Shown piece by piece: positions 4,432-31,840 of a stretch of 31,840 nt of DNA. Position numbers and translations under genes: made by a program. Under the pieces are notes generated by a model. It was not told the DNA's origin and did not search any database. It saw only the letters and a program-made list of their open reading frames with translations. The stretch's first letter is position 1. The number at the start of each line of letters is the position of its first letter. This DNA comes from Promethearchaeia archaeon (GTDB taxonomy: Archaea > Asgardarchaeota > Lokiarchaeia > Sigyniarchaeales > SOKP01). The stretch spans positions 1-31,840 of the forward strand of contig JAWOFX010000098.1 of the NCBI GenBank assembly GCA_046497275.1, read 5' to 3'.

Positions 4432-4998
4432 CTATTGTATCTTTGAACCACAACTTTCACAGAAATTCGCATTTGGTCGAAGTTGATGGCCACAATAGGG
4501 ACAATAATTTTTCTCACCAGACCTAACCTCTTCAACAGGTTTTTCCGGTTTCTCTTGAAATTCTTCAGCGGGTTCATATTCCACTTTTTCACCCAACACA
4601 ATCTCGCCTGTTGCTGGATTAAATTTGTATCGAATTTCTCCATTTTGTCTTAAGTCCAATAAAACCCTTAATACATCGGAAGGTTTAATACCTACTTCTA
4701 AGGCTATGTTTTCCAGTTTATGTGTGCCTTGAAAATTTCGCTCGGCTATAGCAACTTTTACAGCCTTTTTATATTTATAATTCGTATATAATTGCTCAAA
4801 TCCACCAATGAAAATGAAAAATGCTGGAATGAATAACCAATAACCCCACGAACTTAACCCAATAAACTCAATGTTAAGGGCCAAAAACACTAAAGAGAGG
4901 ATTGCGACAAATAAAAAGACTATACCAGTTGCGAATGTTCCTATTGCTGCCTCATATTTTTGTTTTTGATATTCTCTTTTATAAGAAGTGTCGTTCAT
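4432..4998 (-). CDS. Membrane protein: 2 TM helices + winged helix + C-terminal zinc ribbon
   Basis: Two hydrophobic stretches (aa ~18-42 and ~52-68), HTH-like KLENIALEVGIKPSDVLRVLLDL, and CPYCG...FCESCG. Confidence 0.88.
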   Translation of the reverse strand: MNDTSYKREYQKQKYEAAIGTFATGIVFLFVAILSLVFLALNIEFIGLSSWGYWLFIPAFFIFIGGFEQLYTNYKYKKAVKVAIAERNFQGTHKLENIALEVGIKPSDVLRVLLDLRQNGEIRYKFNPATGEIVLGEKVEYEPAEEFQEKPEKPVEEVRSGEKNYCPYCGHQLRPNANFCESCGSKIQ

Positions 4999-5213
4999 TT
5001 TTTATCTACTTCATTATTATTTTATTAATTTAAATAATTGAGATTCCTATTTAAGATATTTATAATCCAATTTTTCATATAAAGTTCTTCATAAGTCTTC
5101 TTAAAATCATTTTTGAATCTTTCTAAAATGAACTCGAGGAGAGCTATAGATAAGCTATAAAAAATTCTAAGATTGTATTAGGAGAGAAAAAAATATAATA
5201 GATTATATAAATC

Positions 5214-5624: not shown

Positions 5625-7881
5625 TGAAAAGTATATATTTTTGAAATATCATAATAAAATTATGATTAAATGGTTAAACGCATTATTTTATTTTCTTAAT
5701 ATTGAAGGTTTTACAACATTACAACAAATTCTTTTGACGAATCTTATTCTATTGCTAATAAGTCGATTGATCCTTATCATTTCTTATTATTTACGATACA
5801 GAGAACTATTTGAAGGAAAAGGGAGGCCATTTAAGGTGTTCTTTCCTAATAATTATGTAATTTATTTTATTCTTAAGGAAATCTCCGTTATATTATTAGG
5901 AATCCTGTATTTTCCTCTCGCTGTTGCAGTAGCTATTTTTTCCCTTATGCTGTCTGGAGACTATATTAGAAATATTGGGGAGGAAAAGAATTCGAAACTC
6001 TTATCAATACTTGGAAAAATTATAAAAATTTTCACACCCTTCATAGGTGTTGTATATTTCATTCTTGACGCGAATTATCTTGTTTTGGCAGGTATAGCTC
6101 TCAGCCTATTAGTCTATATTGTGCTAGGTCAAAAAAGAGTGTCTTATAGCATTGCTCAAATAAAAGAACGATTAACAAATAGTCGATTCAATAAAACAAA
6201 AGTAGGAAAAGTAGTCCATGCGATCTTATTGATTATTATCGTAGGTTCTTCTCTGTTTATCATTACGGGCGTTGGCGTGTTTAGTCCTCCAGAAAGGATA
6301 ACAGAATATGTGAGTATGAGGGACGGTGTTAAGTTAGCCACGGATGTGTATTATAGTCCTGGATCATTTGGTGCGCCACGACCTGTTATCCTAGTAAGGA
6401 CTCCTTATGGAAAAACAGGATGGGCAACAGATTTATATTCTCTCTTCTATTTTACTCAAGACTACCATATGGTTGTGCAGGACCTTCGAGGCACATATGA
6501 TTCCGAAGGTGGACAGAATTTTCTACTCTTTACTAAATCCTATTTAGATGGTGTTGACACTGTTGATTGGATTATGAATCAATCCTGGTGTAATGGAAAA
6601 ATTGCAAGTGTGGGAGTTTCTGCTCTCTGTATTAATCAATATTTCTATGCTGGAATGAATCCTAATGGATTAGAAGCCCAATCCCTATGGTTTGGTACAC
6701 CCGAGTTATTTGATCATGCTATTTATCAGGGTTCGTATCATAAATCCTCTGTCGAGACATGGATCGAAAGTACTGCACCAGAGAACTATGATTTTCAGAT
6801 AAATACGATTTTTGATTATTTTCCCAAGAATGAAACGATGTATAACTCAACTTCATTAAAAATTCCGATTGGACCTACGTATTCTAATATTTCTACAAGG
6901 GCATTGCACGTAGGAGGTTGGTATGACCACTTCCTTCAAGGAACTATAGATGGGTATATAGGATATGATGATAATGGAGCTGCGCGAGCCAAAGGTCACC
7001 AGAGATTAATTATGGGGCCGTGGACTCATGGATCCGTCTATGGAGGGAAACAAGGACAACTCACATACCCAGGAAATTCGAATGGATTTAATTTAATCTT
7101 TCAATGGGAACAAGAAATATTCGATGAATCACTAAGGGGAATTCCAGCCGATTGGAGTGGACCTCGAGTTGCATATTATCTAATGGGAGATGTGGATACT
7201 TCTGGAGATTGGAATTATTGGAGATATGTAGATGATTGGCCTTTGGATCATATAGATACAGTGTGGTATTTCCATCATAATAAAAGTTTAATTAAAGATA
7301 TTGTCCCAACAAAACTAGGCAACTTTTCCTATCTTTATGATCCACGCGATCCAGTGAAAAATCTTGGAGGACAAAATCAGCCGTTCGATTTAAATGGCCC
7401 TTATGATCAGAGACCAATAGAAGACAGATCCGATGTGTTGCTCTTTGAAAGTGATGTGCTAACAGAGCCATATGAAACCGTCGGAAGGATATGGGGGCAC
7501 CTTTTTGTTACTTCAAATTGTACAGATACCGATTTCACTGTGAAACTCACTGATGTATATCCTGATAATCGATCAATGCTTATAACGGATGGTTCCCTTA
7601 CAGTAAGAAGTAGAAATGGGTATACAGTTGAAGATTTCATGACAGGAAATCAAATCAACGTCTATGAGCTTTGGGTGGATTGCTGGAGTACAGCATATAC
7701 ATTTGCTCCAGGACATAAAATTAGAGTGGCTATTTCAAGTTCTAACTATCCTAGATATGGACTTAACCCAAATACAAACGCATCGTTAGCTGAAAGCTAT
7801 TTAAATTACAATATTGCCAATAATACATTATGTACTGGACCTATCTATAATTCCTCTATAATTTTGCCTCAACTTGTATAA
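5614..7881 (+). CDS. Membrane-anchored CocE/NonD (X-Pro dipeptidyl-peptidase-like, S15) hydrolase; true start may be ATG at 5662
   Basis: MRDGVKLATDVY, PVILVRTPYGK, QDLRG, nucleophile GVS, GGWYD, GPWTH, C-terminal jelly-roll RVAISSSNYPRY; ~200-aa hydrophobic N-terminus. Confidence 0.92.
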   Translation: MIINEKYIFLKYHNKIMIKWLNALFYFLNIEGFTTLQQILLTNLILLLISRLILIISYYLRYRELFEGKGRPFKVFFPNNYVIYFILKEISVILLGILYFPLAVAVAIFSLMLSGDYIRNIGEEKNSKLLSILGKIIKIFTPFIGVVYFILDANYLVLAGIALSLLVYIVLGQKRVSYSIAQIKERLTNSRFNKTKVGKVVHAILLIIIVGSSLFIITGVGVFSPPERITEYVSMRDGVKLATDVYYSPGSFGAPRPVILVRTPYGKTGWATDLYSLFYFTQDYHMVVQDLRGTYDSEGGQNFLLFTKSYLDGVDTVDWIMNQSWCNGKIASVGVSALCINQYFYAGMNPNGLEAQSLWFGTPELFDHAIYQGSYHKSSVETWIESTAPENYDFQINTIFDYFPKNETMYNSTSLKIPIGPTYSNISTRALHVGGWYDHFLQGTIDGYIGYDDNGAARAKGHQRLIMGPWTHGSVYGGKQGQLTYPGNSNGFNLIFQWEQEIFDESLRGIPADWSGPRVAYYLMGDVDTSGDWNYWRYVDDWPLDHIDTVWYFHHNKSLIKDIVPTKLGNFSYLYDPRDPVKNLGGQNQPFDLNGPYDQRPIEDRSDVLLFESDVLTEPYETVGRIWGHLFVTSNCTDTDFTVKLTDVYPDNRSMLITDGSLTVRSRNGYTVEDFMTGNQINVYELWVDCWSTAYTFAPGHKIRVAISSSNYPRYGLNPNTNASLAESYLNYNIANNTLCTGPIYNSSIILPQLV

Positions 7882-28289: not shown

Positions 28290-29471
28290 ATGCCCAAACT
28301 TAAAAACAAGCATAATAATAAGAAGACATCTTATTATGAAAAATCATTAGAAAAACCCGAACTCTTGCAGTTCCTCAAAGGAAAAGAAAAGAAAAAAAAA
28401 TCCAATGGTATAAAATTAATTCTTAAGTGGAAAGCATATAAAAGAATAATAGGATATAGCTATCGATATGCAAATAATAGATTAAGCGAAACTAAATGGA
28501 GAGAAGTATATGGAATATTAATAGGTTCTATTGATGATAATAAGGAGATTATAAAAGATGCAGTACCTATGGTTGTAGGAGACCGAGCGGGAGTTCAATA
28601 TGAAAGTAAACAATATGTCGATATGGCCCAGATTGATGCATCAACTCATGAAAGAGCCATTAGAGATAAAAAAAATGATTTTATTATTGGATGGTGGCAT
28701 ACTCATCCTGGTTTTGGTTTTTTCTTCTCCCCAATTGATTGTCTCACGCAATTAGGATATCAAATTCCCAATTCTAGAGCAATTGGTTTAGTTTTTGACC
28801 ATACTAAGAAAAAAGAAAAAAATCTCGGAATTGCTGCAATACAACTCAGGGAACCTGATAAAGGGATACGTTCCGCTTATGATATAGTTGAATTAGATTA
28901 TGAACTGAAAATCGAAGAAATGGAAGAAAAAAGTAATAAAATAATTGAAAAAATAAAACAAAATATGGAGGAAATTGAAGGAAGACTAAGTTACTGTAAA
29001 AATGTTATAGGACAAAAAGCAATTACTAAATTACAAGAAAGATTCGGCTTAATTCCTGCTTTTGATGATGATTTTGCAAAGATTAATGAGGAGGATAAAC
29101 CATATATTTGGGATGATCTTTCCGAGACAAAAGAAGCTAAATTTCCAGAATTTCGACAAGAAATTGAAAATCAAATAAAAACCAATACAGAAGTTCTAAA
29201 GAAACTCAAAGCAAAAGAAGAGATGGAGGAATTTAATAAACAACAGGAAAAATTCAAGAAAAAAATACTTAAACAATTAGAAGAACCAAAAAAATTTATA
29301 GAAGCAATATTAGAAGATTTTAAAGATCAATTAAAAGTAGTTTTCCCATATTATGATTATCTTGATACCAGTGAAAGAAAATTACTTGAGTTTATTGATC
29401 AGAAAATTCATCAATATCATGATATATTAGACATGCTTGAATCTAAGGCTCAATTTGAAATAGAAGATTAA
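28290..29471 (+). CDS. MPN+/JAMM metalloprotease, Rpn11/CSN5-like, with long C-terminal helical region
   Basis: Catalytic E in WREVYGILIG; intact H-x-H-x7-S-x2-D in GWWHTHPGFGFFFSPID, followed by TQ and RAIGLVFD. Confidence 0.9.
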   Translation: MPKLKNKHNNKKTSYYEKSLEKPELLQFLKGKEKKKKSNGIKLILKWKAYKRIIGYSYRYANNRLSETKWREVYGILIGSIDDNKEIIKDAVPMVVGDRAGVQYESKQYVDMAQIDASTHERAIRDKKNDFIIGWWHTHPGFGFFFSPIDCLTQLGYQIPNSRAIGLVFDHTKKKEKNLGIAAIQLREPDKGIRSAYDIVELDYELKIEEMEEKSNKIIEKIKQNMEEIEGRLSYCKNVIGQKAITKLQERFGLIPAFDDDFAKINEEDKPYIWDDLSETKEAKFPEFRQEIENQIKTNTEVLKKLKAKEEMEEFNKQQEKFKKKILKQLEEPKKFIEAILEDFKDQLKVVFPYYDYLDTSERKLLEFIDQKIHQYHDILDMLESKAQFEIED

Positions 29472-29489: not shown

Positions 29490-29750
29490 AAAAAAATAAA
29501 AAAGATATATATTACATTACGCATATGCATTTTTAAGAGCGCACATCTCTGTAACCAACAACACGTTCGTGAATGCGGTATTAGATAAAACTACTAACAA
29601 ACTTTACACATAAGCAGCACGACTCATTTTCAAAAATTTACTTGGACTCATTTGATGCCGCTGTGGTTTGATGTTACTTATTCCCACTTTATGATTCAAC
29701 TTTAATTCTTTGGTGGGAATTCCGTTTGAAGGGCAAAACCTAATCGGCGG
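29490..29750 (-). ncRNA. Candidate omega-RNA/reRNA of the TnpB-like nuclease (boundaries approximate)
   Basis: Locally GC-richer, hairpin-forming 3' flank (29518-29580) followed by a T-run on the - strand. TnpB guide RNAs are known to overlap the gene 3' end and the transposon right end. Confidence 0.4.
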
Positions 29751-31718
29751 GGTGGTGATAAATTTGTTAACCCTCTGCTTTGCTTGATTGGGTAGGGATC
29801 GGCGAGGATCGGAAATTAAGCGTAAATTGTAGGCGATGGCTTTATGGGAAAAGAGCTTTGGATGTTTTTTTCTGCCGATATTAGCCGCATCGTTGATATC
29901 TCCGTGAATGATTTTTCCGTTCCTTGTCCGAAACAGTCCATTATGTTTTACTCCGTTCTGGGTAAATCTGCGTAATCCAGCATACTCTCCGCTTGGTTTT
30001 TTCCCAATTGATTCATCGTCGATATATGAGCATTTGCTGGTATACCATTCGGGTGTATAGTCCACATTTATCCCAAAATAAATCGCTTCTTGCTGAATTC
30101 TCTCGAACATTTGGTTAAATGGCAATGAAACGAATAAATCTCTGGTTAATTTGTTGAGTTTAACAGTATCGCTCTGCCATCCCTTGTTATAACCGAACGT
30201 AATTGTCCCTACTCCATAGTATAGGCAATAATACATTAACTTTTTGGCAATCTTGTTAATAGCGTCCCGCTTTACTCTGTTATATTTGTCCCATAATTCA
30301 TCAATCTTTAATTTGACAGATGCTAAGTATTTCCGTAAATCCCGAACTGACCATCCAGAAATTGTTTCCAAAATCCTAATCTTACGATCTCTTTTACTCT
30401 GTAAATAGCGAAAATACTTATGCAAGAGAGAATTCTTTTCACGTGGGGCAATCTCCATCAAGATAATCTTTCTGAGCTTATTGAAAATGCCTTTATAGAC
30501 TCTTTTTCCATCCCTTTCAGCAAGTTTCTTGAAATTGTCCCAATTCATATTTTTTGCCACCCTAAAAAATGATTTGGAACGAAAACATTTATGAAAAAAA
30601 TCCTTTTCTGTTAGTCCCGCTTTATTCACCTTAGAAAGTTCAAAAATTCTTTTAAAAATATACAAAACCATTCTTCTCAAATTCTCAAATTCGTCGTGAT
30701 GGGTGTGAATTCGAGATTCGATAATTGATTCTAATGGTTGAATAAATTTATTTTTTTCATATCGTTCTAGCATATCGGCAATTACATCAGCCCGACGCTG
30801 TAGTGGGGGAACTTCATTATTTATTCTGTAATTAAACTTCTTCAACACTGAGCCGTTAAATATGGGAAATCTCGCACCAAAATTGTTGAAAATTGTGAGG
30901 AAATTATTTACTCCGAAGTCGATAGAAATGGCTCTGTTAGGGTTCTGCTCGTATCTATTGAGATCAAGACCATATTCTCTGGCTCGTTGTGGTTTCGTTT
31001 TGATATAATGGATGTTAAAAGAGTAATTTTTCCCTTTTGGTATGATCTCCACAAACCCACCGTTCTTGAACAATTGAGATAGCACTTTTGTTCTGACTCG
31101 TATTGGGGGGATCAAATGATCGTGTGAGGGTGGCACATACATATAACACGTACACCGATTATTGTTAATCGCGTTTCTAAGGCTCTCTATATTTTTCCTA
31201 TGTTCAAGTTTCTGCTTTGTATAGATTAATTTCCATTTCCCTTGTCGCTCTCCCTTTATTTTTTTACCAATGTAGCGGGGTAGACCAGGTCGTGATGGTT
31301 TTTGTCTGCGTCGATTTTCGGCAGCGTCCTTCCATTTTTCAAGGTCTTGATAATATTTTTTTATTAAACCAAAATGACTCAAAAAATTCTCGCAAACAGC
31401 TAAAACTATCTGTTGAGCACAAGGAGAATATCCTATGTCCTTGTAAGATTCCATAAATTTTATTATCGTTGGAACAGTACTACCTAAGGCTCGTAATCCA
31501 TTTTCAAAAATTCCGTTCAAAATCTCTACAGCGGCGTTCTTTGTGTCAGTTGGATAATCGGATTCTTTTATGGTTTTGTGATATTTACCCGCTATACTTT
31601 TTCGATATAGGTTTTTTTTCAATGTCGTTAGTAGTATGATAAAAGTAATATTGCCGCAAAAAGTACAAAGTATCATTCGCGAGTGCTCGAGAGCGGTTAG
31701 CAAGACGATCCAACCCAT
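29604..31718 (-). CDS. tnpB: Large TnpB/Cas12-like RuvC nuclease, main frame (the first ~30 tracked aa are probably not real)
   Basis: RuvC-I ISIDFGVNN (D267), RuvC-II ITFGYNKGWQ with alternative E in PEWYTSKCS (E557), RuvC-III IHGDINDAANI (D607). Confidence 0.88.
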   Translation of the reverse strand: MGWIVLLTALEHSRMILCTFCGNITFIILLTTLKKNLYRKSIAGKYHKTIKESDYPTDTKNAAVEILNGIFENGLRALGSTVPTIIKFMESYKDIGYSPCAQQIVLAVCENFLSHFGLIKKYYQDLEKWKDAAENRRRQKPSRPGLPRYIGKKIKGERQGKWKLIYTKQKLEHRKNIESLRNAINNNRCTCYMYVPPSHDHLIPPIRVRTKVLSQLFKNGGFVEIIPKGKNYSFNIHYIKTKPQRAREYGLDLNRYEQNPNRAISIDFGVNNFLTIFNNFGARFPIFNGSVLKKFNYRINNEVPPLQRRADVIADMLERYEKNKFIQPLESIIESRIHTHHDEFENLRRMVLYIFKRIFELSKVNKAGLTEKDFFHKCFRSKSFFRVAKNMNWDNFKKLAERDGKRVYKGIFNKLRKIILMEIAPREKNSLLHKYFRYLQSKRDRKIRILETISGWSVRDLRKYLASVKLKIDELWDKYNRVKRDAINKIAKKLMYYCLYYGVGTITFGYNKGWQSDTVKLNKLTRDLFVSLPFNQMFERIQQEAIYFGINVDYTPEWYTSKCSYIDDESIGKKPSGEYAGLRRFTQNGVKHNGLFRTRNGKIIHGDINDAANIGRKKHPKLFSHKAIAYNLRLISDPRRSLPNQAKQRVNKFITTPPIRFCPSNGIPTKELKLNHKVGISNIKPQRHQMSPSKFLKMSRAAYV

Positions 31719-31794
31719 TTAAAGCAAATCTTGACCGAGAAATCCGTATCGATTCGGCGGAATAACGCCCGCGTTCCTCAATCATCGATTCCAT
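31585..31794 (-). CDS. tnpB: N-terminal segment of the same TnpB in a different frame (frameshifted gene)
   Basis: YSAESIRI...LDRLANRSRALANDTLYFLRQYYF matches the TnpB N-terminal pattern (E-x-I...LdxLxxxSKnLyNxaLYxxRQxyF). The frame is open to the window edge. Confidence 0.75.
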   Translation of the reverse strand: MESMIEERGRYSAESIRISRSRFALNGLDRLANRSRALANDTLYFLRQYYFYHTTNDIEKKPISKKYSG

Positions 31795-31840
31795 CTCCGT
31801 AATGCGTTTCCGTTTTATAATGAAAACACTATCATCTCTA

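Follow-up and report, generated by a model that had tools for sequence, protein, structure and literature searches.

The 31,840-nt contig JAWOFX010000098.1 of a Promethearchaeia archaeon (assembly GCA_046497275.1), which was analyzed whole and is called the window below (contig G000:C128), carries a TnpB gene at one end. This gene very probably encodes the nuclease core of a zinc-finger-less TnpB with a rearranged RuvC-II motif, of the type named Ealt (for its alternative Glu), TnpB2 or RIIr. The protein is probably RNA-guided, and the gene is a damaged copy of a Lokiarchaeal element that has at least nine paralogs. Such a rearranged catalytic triad had been proposed from the letters of the window alone (the original prediction).

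In profile searches, the open reading frame (ORF) of the window scored above the cut-offs of PF01385 (OrfB_IS605; 45.4 bits, cut-off 30.5) and TIGR01766 (36.4 bits, cut-off 32) and below that of PF07282 (Cas12f1-like TNB domain; 20.4 bits, cut-off 26.3). A script run on the translated ORF placed D267 at 30918-30920 within ISIDFG, G509 at 30192-30194 within TITFGYNKGW, E557 at 30048-30050 within TPEWYTSK, 48 residues past G509, and D607 at 29898-29900 within IIHGDINDAANI. The interval from E557 to D607 contained a single Cys (C563) and no CxxC. All four residues, their coordinates and the lone Cys where CxxC pairs are usual had been named in the original prediction, and each recomputed coordinate matched; its reading of RuvC-I as DFG, and not the DPG of the Fanzor-proximal group, likewise agreed with the motif. 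Residues are counted from the ATG at 31718, and because the leading 35 or so residues of the 704-amino-acid ORF are out of frame, this numbering is arbitrary while the coordinates are right. The genuine coding part runs from about 31619 downward, codons 1-35 being out-of-frame read-through.

A HMMER scan of 1.84 billion representative sequences, with an intact paralog as the query and a threshold of E<=1e-3, found 1968 relatives. Nearly all inspected matches read iGYNxGWKQ followed by EESYTSK(C/A)SflD, then NADvNGaxNI, without any CxxC. In an alignment of 114 relatives with identities down to approximately 25% (alignment A1), the sole invariant columns were the RuvC-I Asp and Gly, the RuvC-II Gly, the Glu before YTSK, one Arg and the RuvC-III Asp. 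The D-G-E-D pattern was present in 114/114 sequences, with a Gly-to-Glu spacing of 46-53, and a CxxC between the Glu and the RuvC-III Asp was present in 0/114. This invariance is far beyond chance, and the pattern is therefore a family-wide signature of RuvC-II-rearranged TnpBs. The residue at Glu+6 was Cys in 74 sequences and Ala in 36, indicating that the lone Cys of the window protein is not a relic of a zinc finger.

When the window protein alone was searched against the sequences of the Protein Data Bank, nothing relevant was found, and the 114-sequence profile was needed. This profile matched solved structures of Cas12f and ISDra2 TnpB with E-values of 3.5e-18 to 1.5e-11. In both profile and pairwise alignments, GTIVIG/GTVVIG of the family fell on GTIQME of AsCas12f, with Gly over the canonical Glu, which is where the original prediction had put G509. 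The Glu of E-x-YTSK fell on the Pro of AsCas12f DPQYTSQ, and this position corresponds to the Ealt of the literature, a few residues upstream of the expected first Cys of the zinc finger (PMC10711439).

An AlphaFold2 model was computed from alignment A1, whose first sequence is the intact paralog P0002 (84% identical; pLDDT 88.6, pTM 0.83). It had the WED-REC-RuvC-TNB fold with a split RuvC domain, and the strand order of the RuvC/RNase H fold was assigned with DSSP (Table 1). D293, E577 and D627 of P0002 correspond to D267, E557 and D607 of the window ORF. Strands beta-4 and beta-5 run parallel and side by side in the RNase H sheet, and the residue just past beta-5 therefore sits beside the end of beta-4. 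By this topology the substitute Glu would lie beside the beta-4 end, near both Asp residues. Its placement in P0002 agrees with Altae-Tran et al. (2023), who described a relocation of the Glu from beta-4 to beta-5, as in RuvX (PMC10691335). Structural matches of the model (Foldseek, VIA-align) spanned all three RuvC motifs, over residues 1 to about 640. The VIA-align Z-scores were 15.9 for Cas12p, 14.6 for the Acanthamoeba polyphaga mimivirus Fanzor2 (ApmFz2, 9b0l), 14.5 for ISDra2 TnpB, 14.3 for Cas12f and 14.2 for ISFba1 TnpB. Because these scores are effectively tied, the model shows no special structural affinity to Fanzors.

The genome contains at least nine paralogs plus fragments, with intact open frames of 730-880 amino acids, and the protein size of the Lokiarchaeal family is approximately 725-770 amino acids. 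From the RuvC-I Asp to the RuvC-II Gly the family has 236-245 residues compared with a median of 94 in relatives, an excess of about 145 residues. Size is the sole unusual point of this family. Pairwise ratios of nonsynonymous to synonymous substitution rates (dN/dS) among paralogs were 0.19-0.27 and dS was 0.34-1.0, indicating that the family is old and under purifying selection. Together with the conserved residues, this selection suggests that the Lokiarchaeal TnpB would be catalytically competent. Two paralogs, L003 (G000:C25, 3673-4077, minus strand) and L005 (G000:C108), have an in-frame N-terminal extension of approximately 120-135 amino acids with no Pfam match. The distant relative P0037 is 1806 amino acids long and has its TnpB part at the C-terminal end; its residues 871-901 gave a weak, sub-threshold match to a gag-type aspartyl protease (PF13975, E 0.008).

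The host is an Asgard archaeon, as originally predicted. The closest relatives of the threonyl-tRNA synthetase in the window are from Lokiarchaeota/Promethearchaeota (up to 79% identity; named neighbours were all Asgard metagenome-assembled genomes), and TnpB homologs with >65% identity came from Lokiarchaeota/Promethearchaeota metagenome-assembled genomes or metagenome contigs. Among 201 genomes of the phylum, Ealt-type TnpB was present in 42 (E<=1e-20), and no genus but that of the window (G000 and G183) had the large family itself. The sole other large match was an 843-amino-acid frame with 34% identity in G125, which belongs to another genus of the same taxonomic family. In a quick tree the Lokiarchaeal family formed a compact clade (support 100) at the end of a long stem, and this clade grouped, with weak support, with other large zinc-finger-less Ealt members (580-1018 amino acids).

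Enzymes with this arrangement are described in the literature. Jiang et al. (2023) reported that Fanzors and a subset of TnpBs (TnpB2) combine Pro or Gly at RuvC-II with a Glu about 45 residues further on, that the E467A mutant of ApmFz2 is dead, and that TvTnpB of Thermoplasma volcanium is an active nuclease dependent on a target-adjacent motif (TAM) (PMC10530073). In the ApmFz2 structure, Mg2+ is held by D324, E467 and D501 (PMC11832414). The original prediction had stated, correctly according to these two papers, that enzymes with a substitute Glu about 45-50 residues downstream are active. It had also assigned the window protein to one prokaryotic subclade; membership in the RuvC-II-rearranged TnpBs stands and the single subclade does not, as the rearrangements occur in two major clades with eight large branches (Altae-Tran et al. 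2023; PMC10691335). In the largest rearranged branch, RIIr-5, the Glu is replaced by Gly, and some large TnpB branches have lost the zinc finger (PMC10691335).

We propose that the RuvC fold remains intact in the Lokiarchaeal protein, with Gly replacing the acidic residue at the end of beta-4, and that the Glu just past beta-5, two residues before YTSK, would substitute for the canonical RuvC-II Glu. Along with the Asp residues of RuvC-I (DFG) and RuvC-III (HGD), the shifted Glu would bind Mg2+ and cut DNA in the manner shown for ApmFz2 and TvTnpB. Between this Glu and the final Asp, a metal-free beta-hairpin module would take the place of the C4 zinc finger. Each of the nine or more diverged paralogs carries a conserved 3′ tail followed by copy-specific DNA, which would be the omega-RNA scaffold and the guide, respectively. 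The window copy is a damaged member of a set with intact paralogs on which purifying selection acts.

Downstream of the stop codon, the conserved 3′ tail ended abruptly at ...CTCTTAAAAATGCAT (window 29539-29525). The right end, ...AAAATGCAT, was sharp in eight copies and the flanks beyond it were unrelated. A conserved tail followed by a copy-specific flank is the layout expected of an omega-RNA scaffold plus guide. When the element was compared with the genome by blastn to find its left end and TAM, no TAM was called; upstream limits varied among copies (~q411, 445, 626 and 675), and many copies were cut by contig ends. A recurring motif, (A)TGTGAAAG-A-AAGTCCAAAA followed by an A-rich run, was seen near the variable upstream limits of several copies (G000 C71 ~41050-41290, C168 ~14590, C18 ~10117 and C108 ~7500) and may represent either a motif of the element end or a small repeat of its own. 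In addition, at least five copies (C71, C92, C134, C133 and C116/C18) have a small conserved ORF of 61-71 amino acids with no Pfam match, divergently oriented and located approximately 200 nt upstream of where TnpB starts, for example at 4855-5040 on the plus strand (L013) and 7379-7594 on the minus strand (L014).

Several results weigh against an active, RNA-guided nuclease of this type. The window ORF scored 81 bits with NF040570 (guided_TnpB), under its 100-bit cut-off. The predicted closeness of the Glu to the Asp residues comes from the topology of the model and not from distances. The solved structures matched by sequence include no zinc-finger-less Ealt member, and a literature search located no direct biochemistry for exactly this subgroup. 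The RNA fold of the 3′ region was no better than that of shuffled sequences (z = +1.0, single sequence), and a consensus fold of the eight copies had zero compensatory pairs, because the copies are too similar to one another. A search of the 98.9%-complete genome found no Y1 (PF01797) or serine-recombinase (PF00239) transposase; a TnpA partner is often absent for solo TnpBs. Finally, the window copy is frameshifted, and its codon 610 (29889-29891) encodes Asp where Gly is invariant in the 15 other members, changing DINGAANI in RuvC-III to DINDAANI.

The last two defects raise the question of whether the window locus makes any functional nuclease at all, and the chance that it is a dead pseudogene, disabled by the frameshift and G610D, falls only a little short of even. 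The gene is not intact: it is cut by the contig end and, relative to all eight paralogs, lacks two bases at 31620/31621, which splits it into two frames. A conserved MESM...RSRALAN...LRQYY segment lies in the other frame (31585-31839, minus strand) and is in frame with the rest in 8/8 paralogs compared. A programmed frameshift was rejected, as all eight paralogs are in frame. Copies of this element do decay, since the paralog on C133 has five in-frame stops and fragments occur on C115 and C185. In contrast, the window copy departs from the family at only 3 of 214 invariant columns (I86, F295 and D610), no more than the intact members do (2-13), and its dN/dS against the paralogs, 0.19-0.26, is in the same range as that of intact pairs. 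The missing bases are possibly an assembly or consensus error, because the deletion adjoins an A8 run and is less than 220 nt away from a contig end caused by a repeat. The window contig and C30 break off at one and the same point of the element with their first 190 nt identical, and C116 and C18 end 83 nt upstream of this break point; all four ends are breaks that a repeat induced in the assembly, and C116 or C18 is the probable continuation of the window contig.

Two other explanations concern the family as a whole. The RuvC-II Gly might mark a true catalytic loss, with the protein exapted as a nuclease-inactive, TldR-like RNA-guided regulator. The canonical RuvC-II Glu is indeed absent, no transposase was found in the nearly complete genome, and the paralogs are old and show no recent burst. 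We nevertheless rejected this explanation as quite improbable on the invariant triad: the substitute Glu and both Asp residues are retained in all 114 relatives, this same arrangement supports catalysis in ApmFz2 and TvTnpB and holds Mg2+ in the 9b0l structure, and the RuvC-III region is complete. The multi-copy gene with unrelated flanks and a sharp right end also resembles a mobile element. Still less credible is a Fanzor-proximal (pro-Fanzor) nuclease that would bear on an Asgard origin of eukaryotic Fanzors, even though the alternative Glu is common to Fanzors, the host is an Asgard archaeon, and the protein has a Fanzor1-like size with a helical insertion between RuvC-I and RuvC-II. Yoon et al. 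(2023) separated proteins with Ealt and DPG (Fanzors and cyanobacterial pro-Fanzors) from TnpBs with Ealt and D-hydrophobic-G, DPG plus Ealt being the Fanzor fingerprint (PMC10711439). The DFG of RuvC-I therefore puts the window protein outside the Fanzor-proximal DPG group. Fanzors keep a C4 zinc finger (E-x6-CxxC...CxxC; PMC10711439, PMC11832414), which is missing here. The A1 profile reached Cas12f and TnpB structures and no Fanzor at E<=1, ApmFz2 included, and the structural scores were tied among Fanzor2, TnpB, Cas12f and Cas12p. The nearest relatives are small prokaryotic TnpBs, IS607-type included, and the context is Lokiarchaeal with no recombinase found, not a eukaryotic, giant-virus or cyanobacterial IS607 setting. 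On the DFG motif, the missing zinc finger and the tied structural scores, a Fanzor ancestor was rejected. Very likely, this Asgard protein is a functional nuclease of the type described in 2023, neither a dead relic nor a Fanzor ancestor. This answers the question raised by the original prediction and adds little that is new.

Two side issues are recorded here. Six small A1 relatives (P0045, P0065, P0117, P0119, P0135 and P0157) combine a DPG RuvC-I with the alternative Glu and have no zinc finger, which differs from the literature pro-Fanzor fingerprint of DPG, Ealt and C4. A remnant metal site formed by C563, H593 and H606, conserved in the Lokiarchaeal family, was considered and dropped as speculation: it offers three candidate ligands only, and the wider clade has Cys or Ala at Ealt+6 and Ala, Ser or Gly before the Asp.

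Coordinates of the gene, its motifs and the modelled secondary structure are collected in Table 1. The length of the candidate guide segment was assumed by analogy with other TnpBs. The element converges with a gene at 28290-29471 (plus strand) for a JAB/MPN (JAMM) protein (PF01398, E 5e-9) whose C-terminus is extended by a long helical part, and the right end of the element lies 54 nt beyond the stop codon of that gene.

Table 1. Features of the window TnpB locus (nucleotide positions) and secondary structure of the P0002 model (residue positions)
Feature	Position	Strand	Remark
Main TnpB reading frame, 704-amino-acid ORF	29604-31718	-	Stop codon 29604-29606
True N-terminal part of the TnpB gene, other frame	31585-31839	-	Open at contig end
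2-nt deletion relative to eight paralogs	31620/31621	-	Adjoins A8 run 31612-31619
RuvC-I motif IDFG	30912-30923	-	D267 at end of strand beta-1
RuvC-I Asp to RuvC-II Gly stretch	30195-30917	-	242 residues, mostly long helices; REC2-like insertion
RuvC-II motif GYNKGW	30177-30194	-	G509 at canonical Glu position, end of beta-4
Alternative-glutamate motif EWYTSK	30033-30050	-	E557 two residues past strand beta-5
Zinc-finger-less TNB segment, residues 563-606	29901-30032	-	C563, invariant Arg, modelled beta-hairpin
RuvC-III motif DINDAANI	29877-29900	-	Catalytic D607 (predicted)
Conserved non-coding 3′ tail	29525-29603	-	Candidate omega-RNA scaffold end and right end
Copy-specific flank past right end	29505-29524	-	Candidate guide segment; flanks unrelated among eight copies
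beta-1	P0002 285-294		RuvC-I Asp at strand end
beta-2	P0002 298-304		
beta-3	P0002 311-314		
Long helices	P0002 316-520		
beta-4	P0002 523-529		Last residue is the Gly
Helices	P0002 543-567		
beta-5	P0002 571-575		Glu two residues later
beta-hairpin	P0002 602-617		At usual zinc-finger place
Helix	P0002 626-638		Starts at RuvC-III Asp

The known systems closest to the Lokiarchaeal family are the TnpB2/RIIr/Ealt TnpBs with a D-hydrophobic-G motif, matched here by their described features. Both have Gly at RuvC-II with a Glu approximately 47-48 residues downstream before YTS[KQ], a D-hydrophobic-G RuvC-I, and a conserved RNA-like 3′ tail with a sharp right end. The Lokiarchaeal proteins differ in their length (725-770 against about 400 amino acids), in the longer RuvC-I to RuvC-II stretch, and in HGD rather than NAD at the RuvC-III Asp, and no transposase was found in their genome. 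In annotated plasmids that we checked, the small relatives adjoin IS607 family transposases. One of them, the IS607-family TnpB WP_002846150.1 of Campylobacter coli (p9572, NZ_OQ553937.1), is a bacterial protein of 411 amino acids encoded beside its coupled serine-recombinase TnpA. It shares the Gly, the Glu and the absence of CxxC, with the motifs IGKNKEWKQ (Gly at RuvC-II), EESHTSKC (alternative Glu) and NADLNG (RuvC-III); the Lokiarchaeal proteins are nearly twice as long, with no recombinase nearby or elsewhere in the genome. Because the Campylobacter protein shares both traits, the pairing of a shifted Glu with a missing zinc finger is usual for a widespread group that has long been known. 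The occurrence of both in all 114 relatives as well makes the feature ordinary; as a signature it is normal for a very large TnpB branch and has been described before.

What remains particular to the Lokiarchaeal family is its size, from which it follows that a zinc-free, shifted-glutamate core tolerates a doubled protein. One tentative reading, which we consider unlikely, is that a zinc-finger-less Ealt TnpB was independently enlarged to about 770 amino acids and persists as a still active RNA-guided nuclease in an old, transposase-less set of paralogs. If so, a small IS607-type TnpB would have gained a REC2-like domain by an Asgard-specific route, as Cas12 and Fanzor1 did by theirs, and the enlargement possibly came after domestication or with an unknown mobilising partner. 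Fanzors and TnpB2 with the shifted Glu are reported to lack collateral ssDNA cleavage (PMC10530073). Because it combines this type of active site with a core that tolerates doubled size, an intact paralog could serve as a comparison for the growth of TnpBs toward Cas12-like or Fanzor-like sizes.

Compared with solved structures, ApmFz2 shares the catalytic solution, its alternative Glu E467 completing the triad with D324 and D501, and the P0002 model matches its overall fold over 376 aligned residues (model 1-641). ApmFz2 has, unlike the Lokiarchaeal family, a DPG RuvC-I, a zinc finger and an N-terminal extension with RuvC-R and a nuclear localization signal, and it comes from a eukaryotic virus. 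Canonical TnpB and Cas12f (ISDra2, 8exa/8h1j; AsCas12f, 8j12) have the WED-REC-RuvC-TNB architecture in common with the Lokiarchaeal protein and are its best sequence-profile matches, with structural Z-scores of about 14. In these canonical proteins, however, the Glu stands at the end of beta-4 (GTIQME), a Pro occupies the place of the Lokiarchaeal Glu (DPQYTSQ), and a CxxC...CxxC zinc finger is present that the Lokiarchaeal protein lacks.

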